The notes beneath the pieces were generated by a model that was not told the DNA's origin, made no database searches, and saw only the letters and a program-made list of their open reading frames with translations. A program made the position numbers and the translations under genes. A stretch of 64,000 nt of DNA from Macrostomum lignano. Lineage: Eukaryota. Where the stretch lies: assembly GCA_002269645.1 (NCBI GenBank), contig NIVC01000659.1, forward strand, positions 426,232 to 490,231, given 5' to 3'. Numbering within the stretch: position 1 is the first letter of the stretch; every line of letters starts with the position of its first letter. Shown in pieces: positions 21,623 through 64,000 of this stretch.

Positions 21623-22147
21623 CTTCTCAAGAAACTCTCTAACAGTTTTGTCATTCTTGCCAACCGCATTAGCCAGCCATTCGTTGTAAGCGCCAGACGG
21701 ATCTGTGCAGTAAAGATGCGGCGTGCCATCGACATTGAAGCCAACCAGCAGGGTAGACAGGCCGAATGGCCGCCGACCAGTGGACTGCGTGTACTTCTGC
21801 TTGATGCCGGCAACGAACCGGGCAATGTACTCCAACGTGACGGGATCTTCAACTGTCAAACGATGCGATTTACATTCCACTCGGGCGCGATTAATTAAAA
21901 TACGAGCATCGGCCGTCAAGCCGGCAAACGCCATGGCCACGTGATTGTCTAGTAGGGCCATTTTACGAACAGTTCGATCGTCCTGCAGCTTGGCAGCGGC
22001 TTTTTTCTCAACAGCCAGCACGGCGCAATTGCCGCCACGAATGCCAACAGCTGTGGAGCCTTTCTTCACGGCCTCCTGGGCGTATTCTACTTGGAATAGA
22101 TGGCCGTCTGGCGAGAAGACGGTGATGGCGCGATCGTAACGGGACAT
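21623..22147 (-). CDS. PSMA7: Proteasome subunit alpha type-7, exon 1
   Basis: [35 protein letters not shown] is the alpha-7/alpha4 signature; RPFGLS motif; donor AAG|gtgagt. Confidence 0.96.
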
Positions 22148-33290: not shown

Positions 33291-34472
33291 ATGGACTTGT
33301 ACATAGAGTGCCTGTCTGGCACAGTATTCGAGGTGCGCGTCTCACCCTACGAGACAGTGCTAGCCGTCAAAGCCAAACTGCAACGAATGGAGGGCATCCC
33401 CATCAGCCAGCAGCACCTGATCTGGAACAATCACGAGCTCAATGACGATCTGTGCCTGCAGGACTACCTGATCCCGTCTGGCAGCAAGCTCAAACTCGTG
33501 CTCGGCATGCGAGGCGGCCCAATCAACACTCGTCGAATTCTGATTCCGCCAGACGATTCGCCAAGCATCGAGGGTGCTGGCAGCGGCGGCGGCCGTCAGG
33601 TCACCGTGGTGGTGCTGCGCGACGGAGAGCAGCTGGAATTCTACAAGCTTCTTGGTGGCAGCAGCGGCGGCGGTGGCGGCAGCCCCCTGGCGGCCATCGA
33701 CAGCGCCGGCTCGCGCACCGGCTGGATCGGCAGCGGCAGCCGCTCCCGCCGGGATAACCGGGACGGCCATCAGCAGCAGCAGCGGCCGGACGATCCGCCC
33801 AATAGCGGCCGGGCTTTGCGCGACAAAATGCAGAAACTGCAGCAGCAGATGGACAAAATTCGACTGGGCAGGCAGGCCAGGGCTGCCGCCGCCGCCGCCG
33901 CATCTTCAGCTGCCAATTCGAACGGCGCTGCGCCCGCTTGCGAATCCACTAAGCCGCCTCCCCCTCAGCCTTCACTCCCGCCTGCGCCGTCTCTGCCGCT
34001 TCCGCAACAGCGAACTTTCAGGCGTCTGCCGCCTTTGCTTCCGCCTCCGCCCGCTGCCACTCTGCCGCCCGCCCCAACCCTGCAGCAGCAGCCGCCGCAA
34101 CCGCCTCCTCCTCCTCCTCCGGCGCCGCCGCCAACAACCGGCCGCTTGCTGGCCGGCCGGGCCAAATCCGGCCACAGACTGCCGCCAATGCCGCCGGCGG
34201 AGCCCATTGCGACAGCGGTTGCCGTCTCTGAAAACTCGATGACGACAGGCACGACGACAGGCACAACGACGCTTTCGCCGACGCGTTGCACCGCCTGCAA
34301 GAAGCGAACCGGCCCGGCCACGTCCTACGGCTGCCGGTGCGGCGGCAATTACTGCGCCAAGCACCGCTATCCGGAGACGCACGCCTGCACCTTTGACTTC
34401 AAGTCGGAGGGGCGTCGACTGCTGCGCGAAGCCAACCCGCTCGTGGCGGCCTCAAAGCTGCCAAAGATTTGA
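33291..34472 (+). CDS. ZFAND4: AN1-type zinc finger and ubiquitin-domain protein (ZFAND4/ANUBL1), intronless
   Basis: N-terminal Ubl MDLYIECLSGTVFEVRVSPYETV...LKLVLGMRGGPI; Pro-rich linker; C-terminal AN1 finger CTACKKR...CRCGGNYCAKHRYPETHACTFDFK...NPLVAASKLPKI. Confidence 0.92.
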   Translation: MDLYIECLSGTVFEVRVSPYETVLAVKAKLQRMEGIPISQQHLIWNNHELNDDLCLQDYLIPSGSKLKLVLGMRGGPINTRRILIPPDDSPSIEGAGSGGGRQVTVVVLRDGEQLEFYKLLGGSSGGGGGSPLAAIDSAGSRTGWIGSGSRSRRDNRDGHQQQQRPDDPPNSGRALRDKMQKLQQQMDKIRLGRQARAAAAAAASSAANSNGAAPACESTKPPPPQPSLPPAPSLPLPQQRTFRRLPPLLPPPPAATLPPAPTLQQQPPQPPPPPPPAPPPTTGRLLAGRAKSGHRLPPMPPAEPIATAVAVSENSMTTGTTTGTTTLSPTRCTACKKRTGPATSYGCRCGGNYCAKHRYPETHACTFDFKSEGRRLLREANPLVAASKLPKI

Positions 34473-40759: not shown

Positions 40760-41461
40760 CTACCGCAGCATCACGGACTTCACCAGGCTGTACAAGCCGC
40801 TCCTCCAGCCGGAGCCTGCTGTCAGCTCTGCAGCTTTGCTCACTTCACCGACCTTGTCAAGTCCCTCCTGCTCAGACAGGCTCTCCATCTCCAGCTCCTT
40901 CGGCAGCTCGTGCAGCGCGGAGGCGATCAGCCAGTCGACGGCTTCGGCCAGACCCGCTCCGGTAGCCGCCGAGACCTCGAAGCAGCGGCAGGGCCTTCGA
41001 ATCGATGCGGCCACCTTGCGCAGCTCATTGCAGGTCTCGGCTACGGCCTGGAGCTTCAGGTCGGACTTGTTGCACAGCAGCGCCAGCGGAATGTCGCCAA
41101 GTTCGCAGTCGTCCAGCTCGCTGCACAGCCTGTTGAGCTCGTCAACGGACTCGCCAAGGCGGTCTCGGTCTACGCCGTCCACAATGTACAACACACCGCG
41201 AGAGTTCGAGTAGTAGTGCCGGTACAGGGCGCGCGTCTTTTCCCGACCGCCTTGTCCAATGTCCCAGACGGTCAGGTTGGCCCGGCCTTCGATGCAAAGC
41301 TGCTCAACATTGAAGCCAATGGTGGGAATTGTGAACACGAGCTCTCCAGTTTTCAGTTTGTACAGAATCGAAGTCTTGCCGGCCGCGTCTAGGCCCCAGA
41401 TTAGGATGCGGAGGTCCGGGGTTCGACGACAGAGGAGCGCTGAACTGATAGCCTGACCCAT
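40760..41461 (-). CDS. ARF/ARL-family small GTPase, copy 1 (233 aa, intronless)
   Basis: Gly2; G1 GLDAAGKT; G2 [10 protein letters not shown]; G3 WDIGQGGR; G4 NKSD; G5 SAA; ~50-aa C-terminal extension. Confidence 0.92.
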
Positions 41462-43054: not shown

Positions 43055-43750
43055 CTACCGCAGCATCACGGACTTCACCAGGCTGTACAAGCCGCTCCTC
43101 CAGCCGGAGCCTGCTGTCAGCTCTGCAGCTTTGCTCACTTCACCGACCTTGTCAAGTCCCTCCTGCTCAGGCAGGCTCTCCCTCTCCAGCTCCTTCGTCA
43201 GCTCGTGCAGCGCGGAGGCGATCAGCCAGTCGACGGCTTCGGCCAGACCCGCTCCGGTAGCCGCCGAGACCTCGAAGCAGCGGCAGGGCCTTCGAATCGA
43301 TGCGGCCACCTTGCGCAGCTCATTGCAGGTCTCGGCTACGGCCTGGGGCTTCAGGTCGGACTTGTTGCACAGGAGCGCCAGCGGAATGTCGCCAAGTTCG
43401 CAGTCGTCCAGCTCGCTGCACAGCCTGTTGAGCTCGTCAACGGACTCGCCAAGGCGGTCTCGGTCTACGCCGTCCACAATGTACAACACACCGCGAGAGT
43501 TCGGGTAGTAGTGCCGGTGCAAGGCGCGCATCTTGTCGCGACCGCCAATGTCCCAAATAGTGAGCTTTGCCCGGCCTTCCACGCTTACCAGCTCAACATT
43601 GAAGCCAATGGTGGGAATTGTGCACAGGAGCTCTCCAGTTTTCAGTCTGTACAGAACAGATGTCTTGCCGGCCGCGTCTAGGCCGCAGATTAGGATGCGG
43701 AGGTCCGGGGTTCGACGACAGATTAACGCTGAACTGACGCTCTGACCCAT
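43055..43750 (-). CDS. ARF/ARL-family small GTPase, copy 2 (231 aa, intronless)
   Basis: Same G-box set with G3 WDIGGRDK; C-terminal two-thirds nearly identical to copy 1. Confidence 0.92.
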
Positions 43751-44454
43751 GCTGGAGAAGAATTGGGCGTCTTAGAAAGACGGAAATTTTCCATCTACTG
43801 CATATAAATGCACTGGCGGGGGTGAGGCAGTGACGTCGAAACTTCCAGCCTGGCAGTTGATTCTATTTTTAGAAATCTGCGTACGGCAAGATTGTACACT
43901 CCAATTGCAACACTCTTCCTCTCTGTGTCTCAGAGACTGCTAATAATTGTTCATACCTAGGTACATGAGTACATGTACTCGTATGCATGTCGAACTAAAT
44001 CTATGCGAATGTTAAATTAGGTAAGGCTTTCAAACCTACTGGTCAAGTCACCTTAAGAGCGTACCGAAGAGTCTGACTCTGCCATTTAAGGCACTTTTTG
44101 CTGCAATTTTATTGCAAATGTCTTGCCGTCACCGTTTTTCAACAATGCCTCATTTTTCATTTCTCTTTTAGGCTTTTAGACTAAAAATGCGTCGGATATC
44201 TTAACCTTGGATCATGAAGACCTTACGTGATTAAGGTTACTAGCTGTTGCATCACTGAAATACTTGGCCTACGGAGTAACGGCAGGGTGTACAGGATAAA
44301 AGTACTACTTTTAGTACTACTGTTGTACTACTTGCAGTAGTACAGTACTACTTGTACTGTACTTGTACTGTTGTACTACTTGCAGTAGTACAACAGTACA
44401 CGAGTGTTCACACAGCGGCCCACCAAGAGACAGGGGGGCAGTCAACCTAGGTGT

Positions 44455-45132: not shown

Positions 45133-46849
45133 TAATTTATTTTTAATGCGTAATACATACAAATTGTAGAGTTTAATGTGTAGAAATTGTCCTTTCCCTT
45201 AACGTATACCATAGCAGGCATTGAAATTTTCTGACCAGGTTAGAGCTCCGCTCCACAGTGGCAATGAACAGCTGGTTGTTGTTAAACGGGGGTGGGAGGC
45301 GTGTGCCTATCGCGGATCCTGCGGAGGGGCTCTGCCGCAGGATATTTAGGGCCATAAATTAACTACCAGGGGCATAGAGCCCGAGAGGCCCAGATTGGGA
45401 CTAGGACTCAAGGGCCTAGTTAAATAGCCTTATTGGATGCAACCAACCCAAGCCTATGGACTAAGACACCGCCTACTCACAGTGGAAAATTTTGGAAAAT
45501 TACTAGAAAGCGGTCCGAGAGCGGAAAGACCCGAGTCTACGGAAATGGCTTTCAGATTGGAGCGAGTCTGGGCAGCTTATTTACCAAGGGCGAGTCTCCT
45601 ATCAGGTAGGCAGAAGCTACAAGATCCTCCTATAGGGCTGCAAGCCACAAGGCTTTTTCACTACCCAGCTCTAATAAGCCCAAGACTAGGGGTTGGAGAA
45701 GGGGCACCAAAGAGCAAAGGGACACCGGACTCAGCCGGTATTCTCCGACTCGGGACGAAAAGCAACCCCAGGACACCAATCCACAGTCAGTGATGAGAGC
45801 CAGAGACACAATAATGAAGTACACGCTGTTTGCTTCCCGGATTAGGCCCTTGGGGATTACCTTAAACCTCGAGCCTCTTCAGTGGGAAGTCCTTTCAGCG
45901 CGCAGTAGCGTAGGTAGTGCTGCCACCAGTTCCTTCAGGTCTCAGCCTTCGGCGAGGTGAGCTTCCCGTCGGAACGAAATAAACAAGTCAACGAACTCAG
46001 CACAGCGTGCAGATTTGCAGATTAATGAACAAGGCGTCCTGATCAGCAGATCCCCGCCGGGCTCAGGGGTGGCTGGGAAGGCAGTGTTAGCCTCCCTTAG
46101 GCTTGGGCGTCTAAGTTTTAGTCAGGCCAATTGGTGATAGCTTAAATGGGCAACTGAACGAAGTCCGGAAAACTAGACAAGAAGAAGATTCCGAAGACGA
46201 ATAGTCAGAATCTCAGGCACTCGGCTACAAATACTGATGACTGAAAACTGAAAGCTGAAAACTCCTTGACGGAAACAAAGGGGAGAGGGGTCCTATTTAT
46301 AGCCGGGAAACACCCGCGCAGAAGACCTCGTGACTCGTTCTATTTTTAGAACTGACGTCACTTGAGAGTCTCGGGCAGAGTACTAGCGCGCGGAAGACCT
46401 CGTGACTTGTTCTATTTTTAGAACTGACGTCACTTGAGGGTCCCCCGGCAGAGTGCACATGGCTGTGACTCAGTTGCTATTTTTAGCAACATGAGTCACT
46501 CCTCTCCTTAGAGAAGGGAGGGGACCGAAAGCATGTGACTCTCCCGGTAAACAGGGCCAGCAAGTGCAGTAAACATGTTTACTGCACTTTAAGACTTCAA
46601 GAAAGCAAGGCAAGGGGAAAGCAAGGGGAAACAGAGACTGACGAAACAAGGACAACCCACAACAGAGAGGCTGAGGGCTGAGAAACGAAGGGCAGCACGG
46701 GCAGAAGGAGGGAAGGGAGCAGCAACAGACAGCCAAAAGGAGGGAGGCGGGAAGCTGACCAGCGGCAGACAGCAACCCAGGGCGAGGGCGAGGGCAAGGG
46801 CAACTGCTGACAAAGTGCGACGCCTAACACCAACTAGCGGATCACTACA
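45133..46849 (-). mobile_element. Truncated LTR element: 5' LTR (46849 to ~45930), PBS and non-coding leader
   Basis: Begins TGTAGTGATCCGCTAG, as does the LTR at 59509; TATAAA box; PBS-like TGGTGGCAGC at 45928-45919. No canonical CA end immediately before the PBS; no recognisable gag. Confidence 0.72.
46340..46589. promoter_or_regulatory. LTR enhancer cluster: 3 MEF2, 2 CRE, 2 AP-1, forkhead palindrome
   Basis: CTATTTTTAG at 46340, 46412 and 46477; TGACGTCA at 46353 and 46425; TGACTCA at 46466 and TGAGTCA at 46492; 28-bp perfect palindrome at 46562-46589. Function inferred from consensus matches. Confidence 0.6.
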
Positions 46850-46899
46850 CTAAGCAGGGAGACAACCAGAGGAGCCAGCAGATGGACCAAGGGAGGGCA

Positions 46900-47764
46900 A
46901 CATGGACCAGAAAGGGTAGAGCTCATAACTCCAAAGCTTGGGCGGCTGAATTGCCAGGGATAAAACACGAAGCTAAAAGCACAACGCGTGCAACCAGGGG
47001 GCTCAAGTCCCGATCTAGCCACACTGCAGTACAGTGTCACAATCACACCAGGTACACCCCCCTAAACCAAGGCAGGGCAGCCGCTGGATGAGTGTCACAC
47101 GGATGAGATCAACAACTAGCTTGGCTGCGGCGAATGTGATACGAGATCATTTTCGAAACTTTGGAGTGCCAGAGAAGCTATTCAGTGATGGAGGCCCGCA
47201 GTTTTCTGCTCGCGAGTTTCGACAGACAATGGCTGAGTTTAAGGTGGAGCACCGAACCTCGAGTCCGACGTACCCGCAGTCGAACGGGAGAGCCGAGCGC
47301 TACGTACAGACAGCCAAAAAACATGCGGAAGAAATGCTCCGAGACAGGCCAAAGTCTGGAGTTGGCACTGCTTCCCTACCACATCACTCCGGTCGGCAGC
47401 GGCTTTCCAAGCCCGGCGGAGATGGCTTTCGGCCGTAAGCTTCGTTGTGACCGCAGCGAATTTCAAGGACTTGCGGCCAAAGGAAACTCATCTTCACTCT
47501 AGCATTGAGGCTTTTTAAAAGGAGCGCGTTAGAGCAGCGCAGCTGTACAATCGCGGAGCTCGACCGTTGCAGAAACTAGCAGCTGGTGATCTGGTGTGGT
47601 TACAACGCGGTCGTCGCGAGTGGGTGGCAGCTGAGATTGATAGCGATTGTGAAAACTCTCCAAGTTCGTACTTGGTTCAAACAGAGACTGGACAGTTGCT
47701 CAGACGGAACCGTCGCTTCATCAGGCCATATTATTGCATTACTTTCTGCGTTCATCTAATATAG
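46900..47764 (+). mobile_element. Degenerate Ty3/Gypsy integrase fragment
   Basis: FGVPEKLFSDGGPQF...HRTSSPTYPQSNGRAER, then SPAEMAFGRKLR and SYLVQTETGQLLRRNRRFIRP; frameshifted. Confidence 0.85.
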
Positions 47765-49399
47765 CTCGTATCTCCGATTGCATGAAGTACTGACCTAATA
47801 CCAAATATGATTTTTGTTTTTGATCCTGTTCAGAATATTGCGTTTTTAATACCTTCATCGGGGATACACGTTCGCCCCAATGTTTTTCGTTTAGATCGTT
47901 TTCGAAAAAAATTTCTTTCGTAAGGGAGATGTTGCGATTGCATTGTGTTTCGATTTATCTGGTGACTTGGTTTAACTGAGCCCTCTAGCTCAATCCATCC
48001 AATAATGTTGAATTGCGCACTGGCTTTGTGTATGCGTTCTACAATGTACATCGCTCGCCTAGTTTAAAAGTATAAGTCCGTGCTGGGCCAGTTTGAGCCG
48101 TGAGTGTTCTTGACTAGCCTAACAAACTGACTTTCATTAATAACTTAACAATCAGGATCTGGTTGACTTCGAGTTCATTCACCTTGCTGTCCTGCTCGTT
48201 CTAGCTGCGCTTATTTGGATTCTCCCTTGACCATAGATCGGCGACCGTGCTGTCGCTGCCGTGGACGTAGCGGATGCTGACCAGCGCAGTCGTTCGATCC
48301 AGCATAGGATGCGCAAGGACTACTAGACTAGCTTGAAGGACGCAACACTTGCAAATCGTGCAAAAACAGTTGAAGGCCGATTATTAAAATGCCTGTATCG
48401 ATCCGATTCGATTGCATGTAGAAGGTTAATTTTTCGCCAAGTTGTTCAGATTTTTGTCCCCTACCAAGTATGTCAGTTAGTTTAGTTTCCCTCTAGATTT
48501 AAATGCAAGAAAGTACTGTATAATGGAGACACCCCATTTTTGGGCGTTTGGTAGCTATTCAAATCTTAAAGTTAAGGGGACAAAATTAATAAAGTAGCTG
48601 AAAATCTAAGGCGCACTTTTCTTGAATACGCTCGTAATTTCATAAGTGACGTTTCTGAAAATATATCGGAGTCTGGAGATCATATACAGAACCCGCATTA
48701 CTTTGGTCTATATCCTTTAAAATCTTTCTCACAAGATGGCCAGTCAGAAAAATGAGTGAGAAGAAAAAGCCAAACAACTCAAAGCAGACTCCTGTTTTAA
48801 CATTCTGTTCTCTATAATCTGTAAATTCAAGTGGCTTGCGCGTGGCAGTAGAATTTAGCAAGCAAGCAGAAGTGTATCGGGTTTATTTGCTTATAGCTAA
48901 GCTAATAAACAGCAATTGTTTGACAATTGAGGAGGTATGATAAACTATATTGAGCAGATTTAATTATCCGTCAAACAGTGTTGCAAAGTGATGAAACAGT
49001 ATAGAACAAAGAAAATGGAAAAAGTAAATAGCGAAAACAAGCAAAAATGCTTGTATAAATGCACAAAAATTCTTTTAACAAATTTAGCATAGTAAGAGTG
49101 GCTCATAAGCAGTGTTGGGATCATGTGTACAAATGGTGCATGTATATGCTGATAAACCCTCTTAACCCTGTCACTCTAAACATCAAAATCAAGTAAAAGA
49201 GGCATTTAGCATAGCTGGTCTGTCACCTCAGTCAGACCTAGGCTTCTGCAAACGGCACATATTATGTTGACAATCATGTAATTCGTCTATCTCACTAATC
49301 TATACGAGAACGAAAATCGGCCTTCAACTATTTTTACACGAATCGAGAGTGTAACGTCCTTATATACGAAGTGTTCCTAGTGGTCCGTAAGGATGCGCA

Positions 49400-50010
49400 G
49401 CAGTCCCAGCTTCCCTCCGTCAGCAGCATGCTCAGCGTGGTGTGGTCCGTGTAGACTGTCACTACCCTGCCGGAGGTGAACAGGTGCCATTTCTCGACCG
49501 ATCAGACGACTACGAGCGCCTCCTTTTCACTGACCAAGTAGTTGTATTCGGCCGGGGTTAGAGAGGGCGAGCTGTAGGCAATCAGATGCTCCTCGCCGCC
49601 TTATACCTGCGCCAGCACAACTCCAATTCCATGGGCACTGGCGTCGTAGCGAATGATGTTTTCCGCCTTCGAGTCAAACGGTTTGAGCACCGGCGCCATT
49701 GTCAGCTGTGACTTGATGGTTTGGAGCGACTTCTCTTGCTCGCTGCCCCCGACCATGGTTCGTTCTTGCGCAGCAGTCGTCGGATCGGCTCCGTCTTCGC
49801 GCCTTCGAGTAGGCGCAGACGAATCGGCTGTAGAAGTTGGTAGCACCTAGGAGAGCTGCCGCCTCCTTTGGGTTTTGATGGCTGCTACGTAGGACTCGAT
49901 CGTCTGGATGCCGCTACACAATATCCGGAAGCCGTGAAAGTCGACCTCCGATTGGCCGAAGACGTACTTATCGTTGAGGATGATGTTGTATGTAGGCACA
50001 GACAGCTTAA
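49400..50010 (-). mobile_element. Degenerate Ty3/Gypsy RT-RNase H fragment
   Basis: FGQSEVDFHGF; LTMAPVLKPFD..YDASAHGIGVVLAQ; IAYSS.SLTPAEYNY..EKEAL; YTDH; with stops. Confidence 0.82.
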
Positions 50011-50490
50011 GACAGTTTAAGTGGTACTGCGCCGTAGTTAAAGTACTGAATGGCGCCTGAGAAATCTGTGCCGGTAGGTCAGTACATGTATTTGACAGAT
50101 TTAGCAACCGTCAAAATAGTTTGATAGCTAGTTCAGCTGATGAAAATGCACCAGCGATCGTGCAGCCTGTGACTGATATTGAGTGTCTTCATTTGATTTT
50201 TAAACAATAAATGATTTGAAAAACATTTAAGCTACAGGCATTTGCTTGCTTTCTCTGTCTTTAAATGTAGGTTTTTTCTTATTTTAACTATTTGAAAATG
50301 TAAATTTTCACCTCGCAAAAAACTTTTTTGTTATATTTAAAAAAATTCAAGCGCTTAAAAGTGAGCCGCAAGCCACTCCAACTCAAATTATAGCCGTAAG
50401 CAGACTTTATCCTCAGCAAGCATTCTTCAGGCACTCCGAATCCAGTATTCAAGTTCCAAAGCGCTTAACCGATTAATAACTCCGGTAGCC

Positions 50491-52915
50491 ATGCAATGCC
50501 ACTGCGTGCTGCTCTCCCTTGTCCTGTGCGTGTCGCTCGTTCCGTGCGCCTCTGCCGCAGAGTTTCAAGTGGACTTCTTGAAGAAGATGCCTGAAATTAT
50601 CTACACCTTCTACGAGAAGTAGAGCTCGAACTGGACCTCAACATCACTAAGGTCGCCACGGAGAGTCCCGACGGGAAGCGGAAAGTCACCGGACTGAAGG
50701 TGATACCTGAACATGGAATGCAAAAGCAGGACTTCGGTGCCACCGTGCTGGGTCGAGTGTCCAGCGATGGAGCCTCCGGCAAACTGGTCTTCGTGTGCAG
50801 AACCTTGCGCAGGTGCATAAACATTGGGAAAAAATCACCAATCATCCGCTCTTCATCCAGCAGGCTGTGCAGTTCGCGCCCTTCGGTTTGCAGGGCCCCA
50901 TTCCCACTCAGTTCGGTGCCGTCCGCTCTTCATCAGGCCCTGCACCCCTCGCTGAGGTGGTCTTCCAGAGGCACCTGGACAACAGCCTCTCGTTCGCCCA
51001 GAACTGGCACGGCTACGTGAAAGGATTCGGAGATCCCAACGGCAATTACTGGATGGGTGAGTAGAGTAATCTGTTTACATCAGCTCACTATAAACCTGTG
51101 CATCAGTAAGAACTGCCAGCAAGGCCAGGCCGTAAAACTTAAATATCGTATAACTTCTGAAGGCCTTTTTCCTGGAAAAAATACACTGTTAAAATAGGAA
51201 AAATCATTTGTCATCACAAAATCAACGATTGCATTCGATCCGGGCAGTGAAAATTACCATTTGTTTTATTTAGACTGCAAAAGCTTTACTCTGTTGTATT
51301 GTATTTTTCCATAGTTGTATCGTGAAGTTTCATTGTCATGTTGTTTTTTAATTCATAAGCCCAAGGTTGTAAATGTTGTACTGGCAGTCTTGGGCCATTG
51401 TTGTAAGTAGCTATATATAATTCAATTTGAACGCAGTTAGAAAAGCTCCTCATAGCTATTTTAATTCCTAGACCTGACCTAAATAACCAAAGGTAGATAA
51501 TGTTTACATTATAATTTTTTGTATTGTAGTTCAGAAAGCAATCAGTTTTGAGTCAGGCTTTAGCCTGGATTTTTATTACAAAAATATCGTAATTGATTAG
51601 ACTCGATGAAAGAAGGAGCAAAACAAAACCCTGAGCTATAATGCCACTTGTGAGTATTTACAACTTTGGGCATAGGAAATAAGAAGCCCAGATCATCAAA
51701 TGCAGTCGTTTATTTTGTGATGAAAAAAGATTTTTTCCTATCTCCACGGTAGATTTTTCCAGGATTCAAAAATGGTCTAAAGAAATTACACGATATTTGA
51801 GTTTTACATTTGAGGCCTGCGGCTGAGTGACACTGAAGTATTGAGCCAAATCCGTGCCACTATCGCTAGCTATCTTAAGTTCCACAGCAGCAACCAATTA
51901 ATGAATCGTGCTCAGTCTGGCTCAGGGCATCAAGTAACAAAGATAACCAATAGCACTCACCACCAGAGAGAAAGGCATCGATCCGATTTGATGTATGTTT
52001 GACGAACGTGTTTAACAGGCATTCTCACAAATCACACGAAGGTACAGAACAGTTTCAGGTGCATCTGATTATCCAATTTCTTGCTTTGCTCGTATAAAGT
52101 TTCTCAAAGTTTAAGATTTGTAAATTTCCTGATTTTCTGGGTTGTAAAATTTCCAATGGGGCTGAGTGAGCATAGTCAGCGAACGCTCTAACATGTTAAA
52201 TACGCGGGGCTGCGTACTTTGTTGTTGCTCTAAAGACACGGCGACGTGCATGAGTGAGGGCGTTGAGTTCCTACAAAAGGAAGACTCACTTGGCACTTTT
52301 AAGACAAAGAAGAGTCGAGACAAAGACGATTAAGTTGCTGAACCTGACAAAAGGCTCAGCGTCTTTTGAAGTGGTTGCTGGGTGGAATTTGAGGGCTTAG
52401 TCGAACAGTACTGTATGGAGGTGAAAAATTAAAAAAATAAATTAAAGCAGTTTTTTAACTCATCAATCTGACAGGTTTAGAGCAGCTTTAATTAGCCATG
52501 ACAAAAGATCGCTATTGCAAGCTCATCTGAGGGAGTCCGACTCAACGGCAAAGTTTTGCGTGCGACTTTCAAGGACTTCGGGTTGCGCGGAGCGGACGAG
52601 AATTACAAGCTGGTGCTCGGAGACCAGGAGCCGGGTGGCGACCTCTGGAAGGAAACGGCAGCGTATCACAACGGAATGTAGTTCAGCACCTTCGATGCGG
52701 ATAACGATAATTGGCCAGGAGGGACATGCAGCACAGGAAATTACGATCGTATTGGCTGGTGGTTCAACGGTGGGGGTGACGAATGTCAGCGTTTTAATCC
52801 AAATGGTTTGATTTCTTACTCAAACAGCACATGCTGGGGTTATTGCTCAGCAATGAACGCACACAAATTACGGGTGTGCACAAAGAGCGCGAAGCTGTCC
52901 TTCAGCTGCAGCTGA
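50491..52915 (+). pseudogene. Secreted fibrinogen C-terminal domain (FReD) protein pseudogene, 2 exons (50491-51056, 52475-52915)
   Basis: Signal peptide MQCHCVLLSLVLCVSLVPCASA; VFQRHLDNSLSFAQNWHGYVKGFGDPNGNYWMG|LEQL; YHNGM*FSTFDADND; GWWFN. In-frame stops at 50620, 52489 and 52679 plus frameshifts. Confidence 0.85.
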
Positions 52916-52978
52916 GGCAAACCTGCTGGACCGGCTTATGTTGGGGACTGTGCAGTCTGCTTAAGTTTCACCTAATAA

Positions 52979-55900
52979 AGGGGATGTCAACTTAAGCACC
53001 AGAATGGAGCCCGAAGTTCAGCTCCGGCCCAAACCGACTGCAATCGATAACTTGTCGGCCCAGACGACTAGAATCGCCGAGACATCCCATCCGGCTCCCT
53101 TCCTTGGGGTCCCAGGGGATAAAGGGGATAAAATGGGGATCTCATGTCAACTTAAGGCTCTGGAATGGAGCCCGAAGTTCAGCTCCGGACCAAACCGACT
53201 GCAATCGATAACTTGTCGGCCCAGACGACTAGAATCGCCGAGACATCCCATCCGGCTCCCTTCCTTGGGGTCCCAGGGGATAAAGGGGATAAAATGGGGA
53301 TCTCATGTCAACTTAAGGCTCTGGAATGGAGCCCGAAGTTCAGCTCCGGACCAAACCGACTGCAATCGATAACTTGTCGGCCCAGACGACTAGAATCGCC
53401 GAGACATCCCATCCGGCTCCCTTCCTTGGGGTCCCAGGGGATAAAGGGGATAAAATGGGGATCTCATGTCAACTTAAGGCTCTGGAATGGAGCCCGAAGT
53501 TCAGCTCCGGACCAAACCGACTGCAATCGATAACTTGTCGGCCCAGACGACTAGAATCGCCGAGACATCCCATCCGGCTCCCTTCCTTGGGGTCCCAGGG
53601 GATAAAGGGGATAAAATGGGGATCTCATGTCAACTTAAGGCTCTGGAATGGAGCCCGAAGTTCAGCTCCGGCCCAAACCGACTGCAATCGATAACTTGTC
53701 GGCCCAGACGACTAGAATCGCCGAGACATCCCATCCGGCTCCCTTCCTTGGGGTCCCAGGGGATAAAGGGGATAAAATGGGGATCTCATGTCAACTTAAG
53801 GCTCTGGAATGGAGCCCGAAGTTCAGCTCCGGACCAAACCGACTGCAATCGATAACTTGTCGGCCCAGACGACTAGAATCGCCGAGACATCCCATCCGGC
53901 TCCCTTCCTTGGGGTCCCAGGGGATAAAGGGGATAAAATGGGGATCTCATGTCAACTTAAGGCTCTGGAATGGAGCCCGAAGTTCAGCTCCGGCCCAAAC
54001 CGACTGCAATCGATAACTTGTCGGCCCAGACGACTAGAATCGCCGAGACATCCCATCCGGCTCCCTTCCTTGGGGTCCCAGGGGATAAAGGGGATAAAAT
54101 GGGGATCTCATGTCAACTTAAGGCTCTGGAATGGAGCCCGAAGTTCAGCTCCGGCCCAAACCGACTGCAATCGATAACTTGTCGGCCCAGACGACTAGAA
54201 TCGCCGAGACATCCCATCCGGCTCCCTTCCTTGGGGTCCCAGGGGATAAAGGGGATAAAATGGGGATCTCATGTCAACTTAAGGCTCTGGAATGGAGCCC
54301 GAAGTTCAGCTCCGGACCAAACCGACTGCAATCGATAACTTGTCGGCCCAGACGACTAGAATCGCCGAGACATCCCATCCGGCTCCCTTCCTTGGGGTCC
54401 CAGGGGATAAAGGGGATAAAATGGGGATCTCATGTCAACTTAAGGCTCTGGAATGGAGCCCGAAGTTCAGCTCCGGCCCAAACCGACTGCAATCGATAAC
54501 TTGTCGGCCCAGACGACTAGAATCGCCGAGACATCCCATCCGGCTCCCTTCCTTGGGGTCCCAGGGGATAAAGGGGATAAAATGGGGATCTCATGTCAAC
54601 TTAAGGCTCTGGAATGGAGCCCGAAGTTCAGCTCCGGACCAAACCGACTGCAATCGATAACTTGTCGGCCCAGACGACTAGAATCGCCGAGACATCCCAT
54701 CCGGCTCCCTTCCTTGGGGTCCCAGGGGATAAAGGGGATAAAATGGGGATCTCATGTCAACTTAAGGCTCTGGAATGGAGCCCGAAGTTCAGCTCCGGAC
54801 CAAACCGACTGCAATCGATAACTTGTCGGCCCAGACGACTAGAATCGCCGAGACATCCCATCCGGCTCCCTTCCTTGGGGTCCCAGGGGATAAAGGGGAT
54901 AAAATGGGGATCTCATGTCAACTTAAGGCTCTGGAATGGAGCCCGAAGTTCAGCTCCGGCCCAAACCGACTGCAATCGATAACTTGTCGGCCCAGACGAC
55001 TAGAATCGCCGAGACATCCCATCCGGCTCCCTTCCTTGGGGTCCCAGGGGATAAAGGGGATAAAATGGGGATCTCATGTCAACTTAAGGCTCTGGAATGG
55101 AGCCCGAAGTTCAGCTCCGGCCCAAACCGACTGCAATCGATAACTTGTCGGCCCAGACGACTAGAATCGCCGAGACATCCCATCCGGCTCCCTTCCTTGG
55201 GGTCCCAGGGGATAAAGGGGATAAAATGGGGATCTCATGTCAACTTAAGGCTCTGGAATGGAGCCCGAAGTTCAGCTCCGGACCAAACCGACTGCAATCG
55301 ATAACTTGTCGGCCCAGACGACTAGAATCGCCGAGACATCCCATCCGGCTCCCTTCCTTGGGGTCCCAGGGGATAAAGGGGATAAAATGGGGATCTCATG
55401 TCAACTTAAGGCTCTGGAATGGAGCCCGAAGTTCAGCTCCGGCCCAAACCGACTGCAATCGATAACTTGTCGGCCCAGACGACTAGAATCGCCGAGACAT
55501 CCCATCCGGCTCCCTTCCTTGGGGTCCCAGGGGATAAAGGGGATAAAATGGGGATCTCATGTCAACTTAAGGCTCTGGAATGGAGCCCGAAGTTCAGCTC
55601 CGGCCCAAACCGACTGCAATCGATAACTTGTCGGCCCAGACGACTAGAATCGCCGAGACATCCCATCCGGCTCCCTTCCTTGGGGTCCCAGGGGATAAAG
55701 GGGATAAAATGGGGATCTCATGTCAACTTAAGGCTCTGGAATGGAGCCCGAAGTTCAGCTCCGGCCCAAACCGACTGCAATCGATAACTTGTCGGCCCAG
55801 ACGACTAGAATCGCCGAGACATCCCATCCGGCTCCCTTCCTTGGGGTCCCAGGGGATAAAGGGGATAAAATGGGGATCTCATGTCAACTTAAGGCTCTGG

Positions 55901-56287
55901 AATGGAGCCCGAAGTTCAGCTCCGGCCCAAACCGACTGCAATCGATAACTTGTCGGCCCAGACGACTAGAATCGCCGAGACATCCCATCCGGCTCCCTTC
56001 CTTGGGGTCCCAGGGGATAAAGGGGATAAAATGGGGATCTCATGTCAACTTAAGGCTCTGGAATGGAGCCCGAAGTTCAGCTCCGGACCAAACCGACTGC
56101 AATCGATAACTTGTCGGCCCAGACGACTAGAATCGCCGAGACATCCCATCCGGCTCCCTTCCTTGGGGTCCCAGGGGATAAAGGGGATAAAATGGGGATC
56201 TCATGTCAACTTAAGGCTCTGGAATGGAGCCCGAAGTTCAGCTCCGGACCAAACCGACTGCAATCGATAACTTGTCGGCCCAGACGA
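52979..56287 (+). repeat. Left arm: about 20.5 copies of the 161-bp unit
   Basis: ORF track recurs every 161 nt from 53004 to 56224. Confidence 0.98.
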
Positions 56288-56823
56288 TTATTCCATTCAA
56301 AACATCGATAGCTACGAAGGTGACTCCTGGAGAGACTTTGAGTTACACATCCAAGCCGCCGGGAGTGTTGGAAGTTTCGGCAAGCGACGCCGCTAGAAAC
56401 TGGAGCAACCGATTCGGTCGGTGGCATCCGTCTTGATTTTTCTTGATTTGATTCTGCCATAATTCAAAATCCTACCGCGTGATTCTTAGAGTGTGTGACA
56501 GCAGCGGACAATCGCTTTGGTTTTAGAGATCCAGGATTGCAACTTCTTCCTGGCTTCTACTCGTCAGCAAAAGCAGGAAGTAGGACTGCAGGCTGCGATT
56601 GTCATGTACGAGCGTAATGGCATTGCTCAAACTCCTGGGCTGCTACGCTTACCACCAAGATACATATGTAGCTATCGAAGGTCTGGTGCCGGCCTTCGCT
56701 TTGTTGATTTCGCTCTTCCACGCAGCCTTGTTGCCAGACTTTATGCTAGAGAAAACGCTTTACCACAGCAGCGAAAGCCTACTGAGCAACATTTTAGGGG
56801 CCAGCGAGAGGAGTTTCAGTCAG

Positions 56824-59368
56824 CCCAAGGAAGGGAGCCGGATGGGATGTCTCTGCGATTCTAGTCGTCTGGGCCGACAAGTTATCGATTGCAGTCGGTT
56901 TGGGCCGGAGCTGAACTTCGGGCTCCATTCCAGAGCCTTAAGTTGACATGAGATCCCCATTTTATCCCCTTTATCCCCTGGGACCCCAAGGAAGGGAGCC
57001 GGATGGGATGTCTCGGCGATTCTAGTCGTCTGGGCCGACAAGTTATCGATTGCAGTCGGTTTGGGCCGGAGCTGAACTTCGGGCTCCATTCCAGAGCCTT
57101 AAGTTGACATGAGATCCCCATTTTATCCCCTTTATCCCCTGGGACCCCAAGGAAGGGAGCCGGATGGGATGTCTCGGCGATTCTAGTCGTCTGGGCCGAC
57201 AAGTTATCGATTGCAGTCGGTTTGGGCCGGAGCTGAACTTCGGGCTCCATTCCAGAGCCTTAAGTTGACATGAGATCCCCATTTTATCCCCTTTATCCCC
57301 TGGGACCCCAAGGAAGGGAGCCGGATGGGATGTCTCGGCGATTCTAGTCGTCTGGGCCGACAAGTTATCGATTGCAGTCGGTTTGGTCCGGAGCTGAACT
57401 TCGGGCTCCATTCCAGAGCCTTAAGTTGACATGAGATCCCCATTTTATCCCCTTTATCCCCTGGGACCCCAAGGAAGGGAGCCGGATGGGATGTCTCGGC
57501 GATTCTAGTCGTCTGGGCCGACAAGTTATCGATTGCAGTCGGTTTGGTCCGGAGCTGAACTTCGGGCTCCATTCCAGAGCCTTAAGTTGACATGAGATCC
57601 CCATTTTATCCCCTTTATCCCCTGGGACCCCAAGGAAGGGAGCCGGATGGGATGTCTCGGCGATTCTAGTCGTCTGGGCCGACAAGTTATCGATTGCAGT
57701 CGGTTTGGTCCGGAGCTGAACTTCGGGCTCCATTCCAGAGCCTTAAGTTGACATGAGATCCCCATTTTATCCCCTTTATCCCCTGGGACCCCAAGGAAGG
57801 GAGCCGGATGGGATGTCTCGGCGATTCTAGTCGTCTGGGCCGACAAGTTATCGATTGCAGTCGGTTTGGGCCGGAGCTGAACTTCGGGCTCCATTCCAGA
57901 GCCTTAAGTTGACATGAGATCCCCATTTTATCCCCTTTATCCCCTGGGACCCCAAGGAAGGGAGCCGGATGGGATGTCTCGGCGATTCTAGTCGTCTGGG
58001 CCGACAAGTTATCGATTGCAGTCGGTTTGGGCCGGAGCTGAACTTCGGGCTCCATTCCAGAGCCTTAAGTTGACATGAGATCCCCATTTTATCCCCTTTA
58101 TCCCCTGGGACCCCAAGGAAGGGAGCCGGATGGGATGTCTCGGCGATTCTAGTCGTCTGGGCCGACAAGTTATCGATTGCAGTCGGTTTGGTCCGGAGCT
58201 GAACTTCGGGCTCCATTCCAGAGCCTTAAGTTGACATGAGATCCCCATTTTATCCCCTTTATCCCCTGGGACCCCAAGGAAGGGAGCCGGATGGGATGTC
58301 TCGGCGATTCTAGTCGTCTGGGCCGACAAGTTATCGATTGCAGTCGGTTTGGTCCGGAGCTGAACTTCGGGCTCCATTCCAGAGCCTTAAGTTGACATGA
58401 GATCCCCATTTTATCCCCTTTATCCCCTGGGACCCCAAGGAAGGGAGCCGGATGGGATGTCTCGGCGATTCTAGTCGTCTGGGCCGACAAGTTATCGATT
58501 GCAGTCGGTTTGGTCCGGAGCTGAACTTCGGGCTCCATTCCAGAGCCTTAAGTTGACATGAGATCCCCATTTTATCCCATTTATCCCCTGGGACCCCAAG
58601 GAAGGGAGCCGGATGGGATGTCTCGGCGATTCTAGTCGTCTGGGCCGACAAGTTATCGATTGCAGTCGGTTTGGGCCGGAGCTGAACTTCGGGCTCCATT
58701 CCAGAGCCTTAAGTTGACATGAGATCCCCATTTTATCCCCTTTATCCCCTGGGACCCCAAGGAAGGGAGCCGGATGGGATGTCTCGGCGATTCTAGTCGT
58801 CTGGGCCGACAAGTTATCGATTGCAGTCGGTTTGGTCCGGAGCTGAACTTCGGGCTCCATTCCAGAGCCTTAAGTTGACATGAGATCCCCATTTTATCCC
58901 CTTTATCCCCTGGGACCCCAAGGAAGGGAGCCGGATGGGATGTCTCGGCGATTCTAGTCGTCTGGGCCGACAAGTTATCGATTGCAGTCGGTTTGGTCCG
59001 GAGCTGAACTTCGGGCTCCATTCCAGAGCCTTAAGTTGACATGAGATCCCCATTTTATCCCCTTTATCCCCTGGGACCCCAAGGAAGGGAGCCGGATGGG
59101 ATGTCTCGGCGATTCTAGTCGTCTGGGCCGACAAGTTATCGATTGCAGTCGGTTTGGTCCGGAGCTGAACTTCGGGCTCCATTCCAGAGCCTTAAGTTGA
59201 CATGAGATCCCCATTTTATCCCCTTTATCCCCTGGGACCCCAAGGAAGGGAGCCGGATGGGATGTCTCGGCGATTCTAGTCGTCTGGGCCGACAAGTTAT
59301 CGATTGCAGTCGGTTTGGTCCGGAGCTGAACTTCGGGCTCCATTCTGGTGCTTAAGTTGACATCCCCT
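56824..59368 (-). repeat. Right arm: about 15.8 copies of the same unit, inverted
   Basis: Reverse-complement units every 161 nt. Confidence 0.98.
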
Positions 59369-59508
59369 TACATTAACTGTGATTAACAGAAACTCAAATG
59401 GGCAGATGAGTTGCAACTGAGGCTTTGTGACCTCATTAAATAAATGCATGATGCAGACTGTTGCAGCAGGCTTGAATAATATTCGACTGGCTTTCTGAAC
59501 TTGAATTT

Positions 59509-60187
59509 TGTAGTGATCCGCTAGTTTGGTGTTAGGCGTCGCACTTGGTCAGTAGTTTCCCTCGCCCTCGCCCTCGCCCTGGGGTCGCTGTTTGCCGCTG
59601 GTCAGCTTACTGGTGGCCTGTTTCCCCTTGACTGGTGACTTGCTCACATGACAGACCTTGTTTTCTTGAAGTCCTAAAAGTGCAGTAAACATGTTTACTG
59701 CACTCGCTGGTCTGTGTTTACGGCAGAATCACTTGCCTAAGGCCCATTCCTTCTCTAAGGAAAGGAGTGACTCATGTTTCTAAAAATAGATACTGAGTCA
59801 CAACCTAGTGCACTCTGCCAGGAGACCCCAAGTGACGTCAGGTCTAAAAATAGAACAAAGTCACCAGGTCTTGTGCGTTGGGGCAGTGGAGAATCCCGCG
59901 CTATAAATACAGACCCCCTCACCCTTTGTCGGATTTCCATCCTCCAATTATTTGTACTTTCTGTTTTGCAATTCAGCCTTGTACTTTTCAGTTAGCCGAC
60001 TCCCTTCGTCTGCCATGCTCTTCCCCACAGACAATCTCAATCGTTAATTCACCATAGATTATACAACTAACCTGTTCATTCTGTTAGTATAAATACAAGT
60101 TAAACTCGCGGATTAAGCCCTTCACCTTTTTTCTTTCTGCACCACTAATAACATATTATTAGTTATTAGTTTATTGTCTATTCGACA
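59509..60187 (+). mobile_element. 5' LTR of a BEL/Pao retrotransposon (679 bp)
   Basis: TG...CA ends; TATAAA at 59902; followed by PBS-like TGGTGGCAG at 60192-60200, which matches a tRNA-Leu-type 3' end. Confidence 0.82.
59679..59907 (+). promoter_or_regulatory. LTR enhancer/promoter: forkhead palindrome, AP-1-MEF2-AP-1, CRE-MEF2, TATA
   Basis: 26-bp palindrome at 59679-59704; TGACTCA 59768; CTAAAAATAG 59780; TGAGTCA 59794; TGACGTCA 59833; CTAAAAATAG 59844. Confidence 0.6.
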
Positions 60188-63100
60188 ATTTTGGTGGCAG
60201 AGCGTCATGGTCATCACACGATCGATAACTGACCAATCTGGCGACCAGACCCATCAGTCCCAGAATGACCACAGCACAGCCTCTGCAGAAGCGACCACTG
60301 CCACGGAGCAGCCACCCGTCGAAGCCAGCGACCCCCACCAGCCGCTTCATCCGCCACATCTGCTCCTCCCGCTGCTCCTTCTACGGCTCCGATATCTGCA
60401 ACAGCTCCACTGCCTCCGTCGACGTCAACGCCCTCCTGACCGCAATGACTGCGATGATGCAGCAGAACCAGCAGCTCATTCAGCAGCTCGCCGCCACCGT
60501 CCGTCCAGCCTCGACACCAGTTGCCTCAACGCCCGCATCAGATGCGCACGATCCGGCCGGGCTCATCCGCTCCACTGTCCTCAAAAAGGTCCGTCTCCCG
60601 ACATTCGACGGCACCGACCCTGCTGCATTTCCCGGGTTCTGGGACGCCTTCATCTACCGCGTCGACCAATCCAGCCTCAACGACGTCGACAAGTTCGAGG
60701 CACTCCGCGGTCTTCTATCCGGCCCCGCCCTCAGGAAGCTGGGCGCCCTTGATGCCTACCAACCCAACGCCTACGCCGAGGCCTGCCGCGTTCTCCAGGC
60801 TAACTACGCTGACGCGCAGGAGCAGAAAGACACCTGCTTCCAACGCCTCCTCGGACTATACTGCAGCTCTGCCTCCGACGTAGACGAGCTCGAGACCTTT
60901 ACCGACGCCCTCCGACTCGCTACCGGCCAGCTCCTCCGCCTTGGCGAGCCCGCCTTCACCCTCGACGGCTACGTCTACGCTCTCTGGAGCCGCCTCCCGA
61001 TCGAGCTGCAGAACGAGATCGGCAACCTTCGTGCTGCCAACGGGCAGCCTCTCGTGCCAACCATGACACAGCTCCAGAGCCACCTTGACTGTAAACTTAG
61101 GACTCTCCGGGCTGCCGCCACGACTACACCGACAGCGCCCTTTGCTACCGCAGACTTCCTGGGCAACACTGACTCTCAGCCGCCAATAGCGCGCTACCCC
61201 AGTGATCGCCGCCAGTCCACCACTCCTCGCACGGGCGCCACCCTTCACCACGTCACTCTGCACGCTTCGCTCCACCAACCAGCAACAGCACAAGCCCAGC
61301 CACTCATGCCTCTATTGCAACAGCTCCGAACATACCACCATGTCCTGCTGCAACATCCGCAAGCCGATGACCGGCTTAAAATCGTTCGAAATAAGAACCT
61401 TAGCCACAACTGCCTTCGCCGACACCAAACCAAGGACTGCCGCGACAACCGACGCTGTCGTATGTGCGACGCCGCACACCACACCTCGCTGTACGGGGCC
61501 TCCTTCGACGCCCGCTCCAGCCATCGCTCACCACCTAAGACAGCCCAAAACGCTCACGTTAATTCAAGTGGTGACGCCGACTCCAAAGAGACAGCCAACT
61601 CCCTAGTCTCTGCCGCAGCCGACGGAGGTCTCGTGCCGACCATCATGGCTACCTTCCGGGCGAAGGCCGTCAACCCAAAAGATGGCCGCTCCGTCGACTG
61701 CACAATTCTTCTCGACTCAGGCTGCTCGTACTCGCATCTCGACGGCACCGTTGCCCACAAGCTTGGCCTCAAATCCACCAAGAGACTCTCGATAGCCACC
61801 TCCACCTTCCACTCAGAGTCCAGGCGTCAGATAACGGCGGACCTCGTCAGTTTCGACTTCCAGGCCCCAGACGGTCGCCGCTGGCCAATCACAGCCCTCG
61901 CCTCCGACCAGCTAGCAGCCCCGATCCAAATACCGGCCGTAAAGCCCCCTGAAGATGTCCTTAACACCCTGGGCAGTGTCAACAACGGCGTCTGCAACCT
62001 CCCGCCCGACCACGATACAGACGGTACCCTCGACCTCATCCTCGGTGGTGACGTGAACCAGTTACTCACCGGTCTTGCAATTTCTGTCCTCGCTCTTCGA
62101 CCAACTCTAACGGCCTACCTGACGCCCTTCGGAGCTATCCTCAACGGTGCCATCAACGACACGGGTGCCCGCAACATCAACAGCTTCCTCGGGTCCTCTC
62201 AGGTTCTCGTCGCTAACACCTACCTCAACATCAACAACGACAACCTTCACCTCGACCGACTCCTGGACCACATGTCCAACCTTGAAGCTCTCGGCATAGC
62301 AAAGGATGCTGGAAGGCCGGACCCCAAGGATGACAGGCTCACTAAGCACCTGCTCGACACCATCACGCGTGATTCTGATGGTCGAAGCTCAGTCGACTTG
62401 CCATTTAAAATCAGCGCTGAACTGCTCTCATCAAACTTCGGGCAAGCCTTAGGACGAGCGCAGGCCACGCACCGGCGACTAAGCCTCCCGGAGCGAGAAG
62501 CCTACTACGCCGAGTTCGAAAAACGGAAAGCCGAAGGAGTCTTAGAGCGAGTTGACCCCAAGCGAGACAACAACGGGCAGATCCTTCACGTTCTACCGCA
62601 CTTCCCTGTCATCAAGGAAAGCTCGAATACCACAAAAATTCGCCCCGTTGTCGACGCATCAGCAAAGACCTCTCTTGCCGGCGCTACGCTCAATGATTTT
62701 CTAGAGCCTGGACCAAACCTGTTGACCTCTCTACTCCAAATCCTTTTAGTCCATCGCGCCCACCGCTTCGCCATCTCGTCCGACTTCCAAGCTGCGTTCT
62801 ATCAGATCGGGGTCAATGAACGCATCAATCTACGTATCATTGTCCAAGAGACATCTCTCAACCGCTCATCGACGGCAACTTTGAAAAATGGCGCCTCACC
62901 CGCATCGTCATGGGTGCTTCTCCCAGCCCGTGGATCCTTCTCGCAGTCCTGCCACAAGATTTGTCTCGACGCTCTTAACTCTGGAGAAACATGTCTGACT
63001 CGTACCGAGCTCGAACGCGTCATAGGTGGTCTCTACTTCGACAATCTAGAATCGTCGGAACCGACACTGAGGAGGACGCCGCCCGACTAGTCCGTGGACT

Positions 63101-63730
63101 TTGCGAGCTCTTCCGGCGTGCCTGCTTTCATCTTTGCGAGTTTGCCACAAACCTGCCCAGCTGCCTCTCCACGATTCCCAATGAGGATTGCATCCGCAGC
63201 CACAAATTCGGCCTTCTGGGTCTCACCTGGGCCACCAACGCAGACCGCATCACCCTCAAGAAGCCCAACCTGCCACGCCCAGAGGAACTGACCCGCCGAA
63301 AGATATGCCAAGGTGTCCACACCCCCTACGACCAGCCGGTTACGCCGCTCCACTCATACTCAGCGGTCGTCTTCTATACCGCCACGCTTTCCAAGCCACC
63401 GATCACTGGGACGAGATCGCCAGCTCTGAAATCAGAGACGCCTGGGCAAAGCTCGCACCAGATTCTCCGCCTCGACGAAGTCACCGTGCCGCGCTTCGCC
63501 ATTAAGGACGCCAGCTACTCAGTTCGTCTCGTTATTTTATCTGACGGTGCTCCTGGGGCCTATGGTTTTGCCATCTACGCCTGGCAGTGCGTCGGTTCCA
63601 GCGTCTCCTGCCGCCTCATCTTCGCTAAAGCTCGACTCACCCCAGCCACCAAAGCAAGGCCTCCTCGTCACGGTTCCGCGACTCGAACTCTGGGCAGCCT
63701 CAGTCATCCTCGACGCAATGCGCAGCCACT
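60188..63730 (+). mobile_element. BEL/Pao gag-pol internal region, frameshifted and truncated before integrase
   Basis: Gag LPTFDG..FWDAF; Zn knuckles; protease ILLDSGCSYS; RT LPHFPVIKES..KIRPVVDAS, LNDFLEPGPNL, SDFQAAFYQI, LYFDN; RNase H ILSDGAPGAYG, LIFAKARL, PRLEL, spread over several frames. Confidence 0.92.
60265..63090 (+). pseudogene. Longest remaining BEL gag-protease-RT ORF (941 aa), partly out of frame
   Basis: Probable true start MVITRS at 60207 is in another frame. The first knuckle (CLYCNSSEHTTMSC) and the RT motif WRLTRIVMGASPSPW are also in alternative frames. Confidence 0.8.
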
Positions 63731-64000
63731 TGCAGTTCGAAGGGGGGGGCGTAGCCCAGCGGTAGCGCAGCTGCTCTGGTGTGCCAGCGACCCAGGCCGA
63801 TTCCAAGTGCAGTCACATTAATTTGGGGCTGAATTGGAATCTCGGCTTGGCCTCTGCTCGGCAATTAACGGCCTTGAGAGCCAACCCCCCAAGGCGCAGT
63901 GAAGTGTACATGCCTAACGATAATATACAGTTAGGGCCGCTGTACACTCCTGTGTGAGTGTGTGCCTGTGTACGTATCGCGCGCTTGTGTGCCTGCTCAG

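Follow-up and report, generated by a model that had tools for sequence, protein, structure and literature searches.

The analysed stretch of 64,000 nucleotides from contig NIVC01000659.1 of Macrostomum lignano (the window, to whose full length all positions refer) contains two long terminal repeats (LTRs) that carry, ahead of the TATA box, a block of forkhead, AP-1, MEF2 and cAMP response element (CRE) sites. Both LTRs belong to one abundant, recently mobile Ty3/Gypsy family, and during its replication the sites have been far better conserved than the DNA around them. As judged from this conservation, the sites very probably serve the element's own transcription; the block as a whole may be regarded, at a probability of about 0.58, as a signal-inducible promoter of the element, predicted to respond to injury or starvation stress.

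All the motifs that an earlier reading of the letters alone (the sequence-only reading) had named were located in both LTRs where claimed, as was the tandem duplication of the CRE-MEF2 block in the copy at 46 kb, which consists of a 72-bp unit present twice. The palindrome described as a common feature of 26 bp has this length in the 59-kb copy and 28 bp in the 46-kb copy. The further statement that the blocks were exactly retained holds for the motifs but not for the spacer letters within the blocks: over a core of 213 columns the two copies differ (mismatches and gaps together) at 0 of 63 motif columns and at 27 of 150 other columns. The copies can be aligned only along the first 100 bp and along the core to just beyond the TATA box, since the 59-kb LTR is interrupted by a BEL/Pao element. 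The 46-kb copy, a solo LTR flanked by a 4-bp target duplication with one mismatch, is a young insertion; its core is 99.5% identical to that of the nearest other insertion, and the homeologous region on C25 has an empty site. The 59-kb copy is older, its insertion being common to three homeologous regions (the window, L003 and L004). The U3 part of this copy contains eight canonical sites of four kinds, while 10,000 dinucleotide shuffles yielded a mean of 0.14 and a maximum of 3, never all four kinds; since the motif set was picked post hoc, with the sequence already seen, the shuffles speak for the density of sites and not for their function.

The family was sampled from a genome of 764 Mb in 5269 contigs, in which most loci are present two or three times; M. 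lignano is a hidden allotetraploid with a redundant assembly (PMC12801592; this and the other papers are cited for those parts of their text that were accessible). Searches with three parts of the LTR returned 624, 855 and 741 first-look candidates, which are not copy numbers, and 40 of each were scored. Genome-wide exact counts were 415 for the 14-bp palindrome core (the DIV2 site described below) and 785 for the CRE-MEF2 block, with 0 for the controls. Of 40 palindrome-core sites retrieved from the first 50 listed, 38 lie in an LTR of the family and two (L155 and L156, G000 C104) are related non-LTR sites outside it, with an exact DIV2 and no MEF2, CRE or AP-1 site nearby. The collection began with 160 loci; after removal of 2 outside the family, 6 whose start was not located and 20 3' LTRs, the other 132 were merged by upstream flank into 87 insertions; subtracting 2 without the 72-bp unit and the 2 window copies left 83 for the conservation tests. 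In all five two-LTR elements examined, the LTRs end in TG...CA, are 98.6-99.9% identical within the pair and enclose a primer-binding site (PBS) and, ahead of the 3' LTR, a purine tract; the primer is presumably tRNA-Leu. The LTR end was located in 62 of the 87 insertions, and is followed by a PBS in 14 and by an exact 4-bp duplication in 36 of the remaining 48. Pfam matches in pol comprise reverse transcriptase, RNase H and integrase in Gypsy order, a protease motif being seen by eye, and the gag upstream of it has a zinc knuckle; no open reading frame (ORF) of the size of an envelope gene (env) was seen in the two-LTR elements of the family.

A comparison of motif and flank conservation across the family, proposed in the sequence-only reading, was run on the 83 insertions. 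Variants present in at least three insertions (shared) mark change on replicating lineages, and private variants are mostly damage suffered after insertion; pairwise projections were used, for the MAFFT alignment of the core displaced the third forkhead site. Shared variants occupy 2 of 63 motif columns and 55 of 150 others (p=5e-8), so that the motifs are far better conserved, and none of 212 shifted masks matched the real motif mask. Conditioning on the columns identical in both window copies, which removes the motif selection of the earlier reader, gives 2 of 63 against 33 of 123 (p=4e-5), and in 44 copies sampled via motif-free DNA the unconditioned figures are 1 of 63 and 32 of 150 (p=1e-4). 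Elsewhere in the LTR, shared variants are found in 27-30% of the columns of the 5' end, the TATA region and U5, the TATA columns themselves having none. Among distant relatives, in which ungapped flank identity goes down to 22-55%, the MEF2 consensus is retained in 8 of 11 insertions, in one of them with an altered A/T core; a rearrangement has removed the module from one distant lineage, and U3 is missing from three loci.

Private variants are distributed otherwise: 30 fall in motif columns, where flanks of matching base class predict 37 (P=0.14). Because shared changes avoid the motifs while private changes strike motifs and flanks about equally, selection is placed on the replication stage; it likely acts on the replicating (source) element, and little or not at all on the inserted copies.

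A feature absent from the sequence-only reading concerns the architecture of the block, for the AP-1-MEF2-AP-1 block and the CRE-MEF2 block resemble two copies of a single bZIP-MEF2-bZIP unit, of which the second is itself duplicated in young insertions. Intermediate relatives carry CRE-MEF2-AP-1 once or twice, distant relatives a single CRE-MEF2-half-CRE or CRE-MEF2-E-box, and across relatives AP-1 and CRE interchange at the equivalent place in the unit. The 72-bp unit is single in 37 of the 87 insertions, double in 45, triple in 3 and not found in 2; multi-unit insertions are younger, with a median of 0 private changes per 100 bases vs 0.97 in single-unit ones, and the same is seen within the pattern-sampled set. 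A host promoter that might have donated the CRE-MEF2 block was not found, all 14 further sites retrieved being relatives of the LTR.

The centre of the palindrome is, as had likewise been missed, the exact FOXO site crystallised under the name DIV2, that is, two inverted forkhead cores with zero spacer; it is exact in 36 of 47 copies sampled via motif-free DNA. FOXO1 binds DIV2 as a cooperative dimer through Arg225 and Gln227 of wing 1, FOXO3, FOXM1 and FOXI1 dimerise on it too, and a DIV2 reporter performs 5.4-fold better than single sites (PMC8034652). The host FoxO loci L199, L200 and L203 each carry the wing-1 Arg and Gln, and the best alignment of the L199 exon is with the FOXO1 chain 6lbi, both interface residues being identical. 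A third forkhead site, not in the sequence-only reading either, is conserved across the family.

Upstream stands an inverted pair of E-boxes, also overlooked before, of which at least one is present in 75 of the 87 copies and two in 43; a further CACGTG box occurs in 60. Their factor is taken here to be TFEB/MITF. In Caenorhabditis elegans, FOXO and TFEB co-occupy stress promoters (PMC6199276). MEF2 genes are present in the genome of the worm. Two other candidate sites were set aside: metal-response elements have matches in 79 of the 87 copies, but the aligned sites are altered in a large young subfamily and no claim is made for them, and an AP-2-like site is present in 34 copies only.

The claim of a signal-responsive LTR is plausible, because the motifs outlast the flanks across the family and MEF2 persists in distant relatives; as to the signalling proposed in the sequence-only reading, the data do not distinguish a muscle or neuronal input from wounding or starvation. 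In the mechanism envisaged, MEF2 and its flanking bZIP dimers (Jun/Fos, CREB/ATF) would act as the central switch, off in the resting state and freed by Ca2+, p38 or JNK signals, as on the BZLF1 promoter of Epstein-Barr virus (EBV); nutrient state and oxidative stress would be sensed in addition by a FoxO dimer on DIV2, together with an E-box factor such as TFEB/MITF. The element would profit by being transcribed in stressed somatic stem cells able to rebuild the germline, source elements being selected through replication and inserted copies decaying afterwards. The gonads of the worm are rebuilt from somatic stem cells, a possible germline route for new insertions (PMC12801592), and therefore an element devoid of env would benefit from becoming active upon injury or starvation. 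A more complete scenario is put forward tentatively: an element triggered by injury or starvation may have built a switch of FoxO dimer, E-box and bZIP-MEF2-bZIP, amplified it in its latest burst, and reached the germline via somatic stem cells during regeneration or degrowth, several hundred LTRs being left as a ready wound or starvation reporter and a small number of them affecting host genes.

Several points weigh against an inducible promoter. The motifs name neither the signal nor the tissue, and the same factors are active in muscle and neurons at rest. In the 44 copies sampled via motif-free DNA the conditional test is weak (1 of 63 vs 13 of 123, p=0.037); unnamed stretches, such as the outer palindrome arms and runs of U5, equal the motifs in conservation; as the copies have common ancestry, neither the columns nor the age test can count as fully independent, and the youth of the multi-unit copies may reflect one burst and not many events. 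The alignment anchor for the distant relatives included the MEF2 site, which inflates MEF2 identity. As for the remaining inputs, DIV2 is not specific to FOXO, given that FOXM1 and FOXI1 dimerise there (PMC8034652), and distant relatives without the DIV2 core yet retain the stem, which suggests an older hairpin role of the palindrome. The 46-kb copy is without paired E-boxes, and TFEB/MITF is a putative assignment for these.

Among the alternatives, the sites could be real for the element and yet drive steady expression in a given tissue (muscle, neurons, gut or a subset of stem cells) rather than induction. Every conservation result fits such expression equally well, and the most deeply conserved site is that of MEF2, a myocyte factor; it is nevertheless unlikely, as AP-1 or CRE sites flank MEF2 in nearly every lineage, an SRF box was found in 0 of the 87 copies, and steady expression in differentiated soma would offer an env-less element little route to the germline. 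An improbable alternative, which concerns the palindrome only, is that it was kept as a hairpin of RNA or single-stranded DNA at the 3' end of the element genome, DIV2 being later or incidental. In the lineage of L237, L238, L240 and L271 both partners of one stem pair have changed, one pair is G-U and the loop differs, L219 retains an 8-bp stem around a non-palindromic centre, and in the main family the outer arms are almost as conserved as the core. The compensatory change is, however, a single event, and the stem is lost in the relatives L232, L236 and L243. The letters of the would-be loop have no shared change in the main family, a constancy beyond what pairing requires. A search for further hairpin variants retrieved seven matches to the stem pattern, three of them main-family copies and the other four, with the arms around another centre, unrelated DNA outside the family. 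A hairpin is also silent on the MEF2, CRE and AP-1 sites. Finally, a chance origin of the motifs in an ancestral LTR, from which the copies would simply have inherited them, is largely refuted: the motif set was selected with both copies in view and some unnamed stretches are equally conserved, but the conditional test, the shifted masks, the shuffles and the retention of sites where flanks barely align all stand against chance.

The proposal of the sequence-only reading that the family spreads host enhancers is unsupported. In favour of a co-option of inserted copies, wiring genes into a wound or Ca2+ network, stand the hundreds of exact CRE-MEF2 blocks and DIV2 sites counted above; AP-1 motifs do mark regeneration enhancers in fish (PMC10232395), and an ARF-like gene lies on the same strand about 2 kb downstream of the 46-kb LTR. 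Co-option is highly improbable all the same. Private motif changes are only slightly, and not significantly, below expectation; the promoter of the ARF-like gene is 99% identical in the homeologous region in which the 46-kb LTR is missing; and of the two homeologs of the 59-kb LTR, one is altered in its CRE and bears 8 inserted bp in its palindrome. In the second homeolog, 0 of 5 substitutions fall in motifs. The private-change and homeolog tests have low power for, and would miss, a few co-opted copies among hundreds.

The ARF-like gene just mentioned, the first of a tandem pair, is preceded within 150 bp by a MEF2 site at 43863-43872, a near-CRE at 43831-43838 and a TATA-like box, a set that the C25 homeolog retains and the second gene lacks. 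A host promoter with a grammar like that of the LTR is found 2 kb from the solo LTR.

Stress-responsive LTR promoters are already known, heat-responsive ones in the same host; what is new is the combination of factors and the evolutionary signal, namely a multi-factor block of fixed spacing that is spared from change on replicating lineages and not after insertion, includes a natural FOXO-dimer site and has a unit that is multiplied in young copies. No earlier description of the block was found in the literature on Macrostomum LTRs and on MEF2, CREB, FOXO or AP-1 and retrotransposons, a search whose scope excluded most subscription journals and the 2020 LTR classification. The closest systems are the heat-shock-element (HSE) LTRs of M. 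lignano itself (Mlig-id115, id36, id55 and id38), Ty3/Gypsy promoters with sites for a host stress factor before the TATA box, which are induced by heat and whose induction is abolished when the elements are mutated (PMC12801592). The accessible text of that paper makes no mention of MEF2, CREB, AP-1 or forkhead, and neither motif was found in the text of its supplement 5, which is possibly incomplete. The present family differs from them in combining four or five factors instead of one, and its induction is predicted from sequence whereas theirs is demonstrated; with the canonical three-unit HSE missing in 87 of 87 copies, it is not a member of the heat-inducible type of ONSEN and Mlig-id115.

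In the EBV BZLF1 promoter a MEF2 site (ZI) stands beside a CRE/AP-1 site (ZII), MEF2 repressing at rest and activating on calcium; it belongs to a herpesvirus of unrelated sequence, and the parts of the source available describe no forkhead dimer site or tandem unit (PMC8706188). Along similar lines, MEF2 binds the LTR of human T-cell leukaemia virus type 1 directly and cooperates with CREB; that vertebrate retrovirus, again unrelated in sequence, requires the viral Tax protein, a transactivator with no known counterpart in the flatworm element (PMC4374383). The 14 bp of DIV2 are identical to the site known from human promoters and reporters, and the host FoxO retains both interface residues of wing 1; the accessible descriptions of DIV2 concern no transposon, whereas here it is placed within a longer palindrome with a possible hairpin history (PMC8034652, PMC8501956). 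In the Drosophila elements copia, gypsy, Tirant and springer, conserved predicted stress-factor sites were proposed as the cause of LTR induction, for recent insertions only and with MEF2, CREB and AP-1 unnamed in the text available (PMC10745035), while conservation in the flatworm spans subfamilies and distant relatives. The 72-bp unit also recalls viral enhancers. The 75-bp U3 repeats of murine leukaemia virus and the 72-bp repeat of SV40 are units of factor sites of about 70 bp, variable in copy number, ahead of a promoter; they differ from the flatworm unit in their factors and are unrelated in sequence.

Should induction be true, the family would exemplify a second way, not dependent on heat, in which a transposon makes use of the signalling of a regenerating host. 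It would also be relevant to the question whether new insertions gain access to the germline through regeneration, and would provide a short natural reporter. An LTR-reporter assay exists for M. lignano (PMC12801592), and in fish, regeneration enhancers require AP-1 sites (PMC10232395).

The possibility that the 59-kb motif LTR is a terminal repeat of the adjacent BEL/Pao element was ruled out, the LTR of the latter being a separate insert of 261 bp inside the Gypsy LTR; the motifs therefore do not belong to the gag-pol at 60229. At L003, a homeologous site, these 261 bp are found as a solo LTR with a 5-bp target duplication, and the remainder of the Gypsy LTR comes after it. The insertion point (59927) lies approximately at the expected transcription start of the Gypsy LTR, and the captured promoter could have driven BEL transcripts.

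Table 1. Features of the window and their positions
Feature	Positions	Strand	Remarks
Solo LTR of the Ty3/Gypsy family	45815..46849	-	1035 bp, TG...CA; ends agree with the family
Perfect palindrome, 28 bp	46562..46589	-	Motif scan; central 14 bp are the FOXO-dimer site DIV2 (identity from the accessible text of PMC8034652)
Third forkhead site, 46-kb copy	46547..46553	-	Motif scan
AP-1 - MEF2 - AP-1 block, apparently the first bZIP-MEF2-bZIP unit	46466..46498	-	AP-1 46498, MEF2 46486, AP-1 46472
CRE-MEF2 unit of 72 bp, two tandem copies	46315..46454	-	CRE 46425-46432 and 46353-46360; MEF2 46412-46421 and 46340-46349
TATA box, 46-kb copy	46293..46302	-	TATA at 46301; also matches the MEF2 consensus
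U3 part of older LTR, same Gypsy family	59509..59926	+	Cut by the BEL/Pao insertion
Perfect palindrome, 26 bp	59679..59704	+	Motif scan; DIV2 core 59685-59698 (identity from the accessible text of PMC8034652)
Third forkhead site, 59-kb copy	59715..59721	+	
AP-1 - MEF2 - AP-1 block, 59-kb copy	59768..59800	+	AP-1 59768, MEF2 59780, AP-1 59794; spacers 5 and 4
CRE - MEF2 block, single copy	59833..59853	+	CRE 59833, MEF2 59844
TATA box, 59-kb copy	59902..59909	+	
5' LTR of nested BEL/Pao element	59927..60187	+	261 bp, TG...CA; 25 bp 3' of the Gypsy LTR TATA box
Broken gag-pol of nested BEL/Pao element	60229..63821	+	DUF1759 and Peptidase_A17 matches, two separate frames
Two intronless ARF-like GTPase genes in tandem	43055-43731 and 40760-41461	-	Present in three homeologous regions
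ORF with ubiquitin and AN1 zinc finger	33246-34472	+	MEF2-consensus site upstream at 32967
NHL-repeat ORF	13406-14527	-	
Proteasome alpha subunit	21614-22225	-	
Tc1-type transposase	23228-24493	-	

Other observations on the family regard its structure and its presence in sequencing data. L091 and L093 (G000 C1903 and C2137) hold the element in tandem (LTR - internal - LTR - internal - LTR) with a spacing of about 7.9 kb. In the pol of L092, RNase H is separated from the integrase zinc finger by a spacer of some 430 residues (~790-1220), which contains acidic repeats and has no Pfam match. Within U5 (at 45870-45925, minus strand) there is a long stretch without shared variants with a PBS-like motif at its end, a splice-donor-like motif is close to the LTR end in 48 of the 87 copies, and a short piece from the PBS to the LTR end is duplicated in many copies; these are possibly structural RNA signals. 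The LTR is contained, in all cases as contigs, in 24 sequencing runs, none of them recorded as RNA and 14 only guessed to be so, and contigs from four such runs cover junctions of the LTR with the PBS or the purine tract of other copies. They are not counted as evidence of expression, because a multi-copy repeat can come from DNA.

Between the two motif LTRs, the window contains further mobile DNA. An integrase core of an older Gypsy-type element (47019-47438, plus strand) adjoins the solo LTR, and an RNase H-like piece of an older Gypsy-type element was seen by eye at 49400-49900 (minus strand). Exons resembling a gene with a fibrinogen-related domain, also recognised by eye, lie at 50600-52920 (plus strand), a second copy being present in a homeologous region. 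They are followed by a foldback-like element (52979-59368) in which two inverted arrays of a 161-bp unit, with about 20 and 16 copies, flank a core of some 530 bp, an organisation presumably akin to that of Spy-type DNA transposons. At L003, a homeologous site without the element, the flanks meet at an A/T step with no target duplication.

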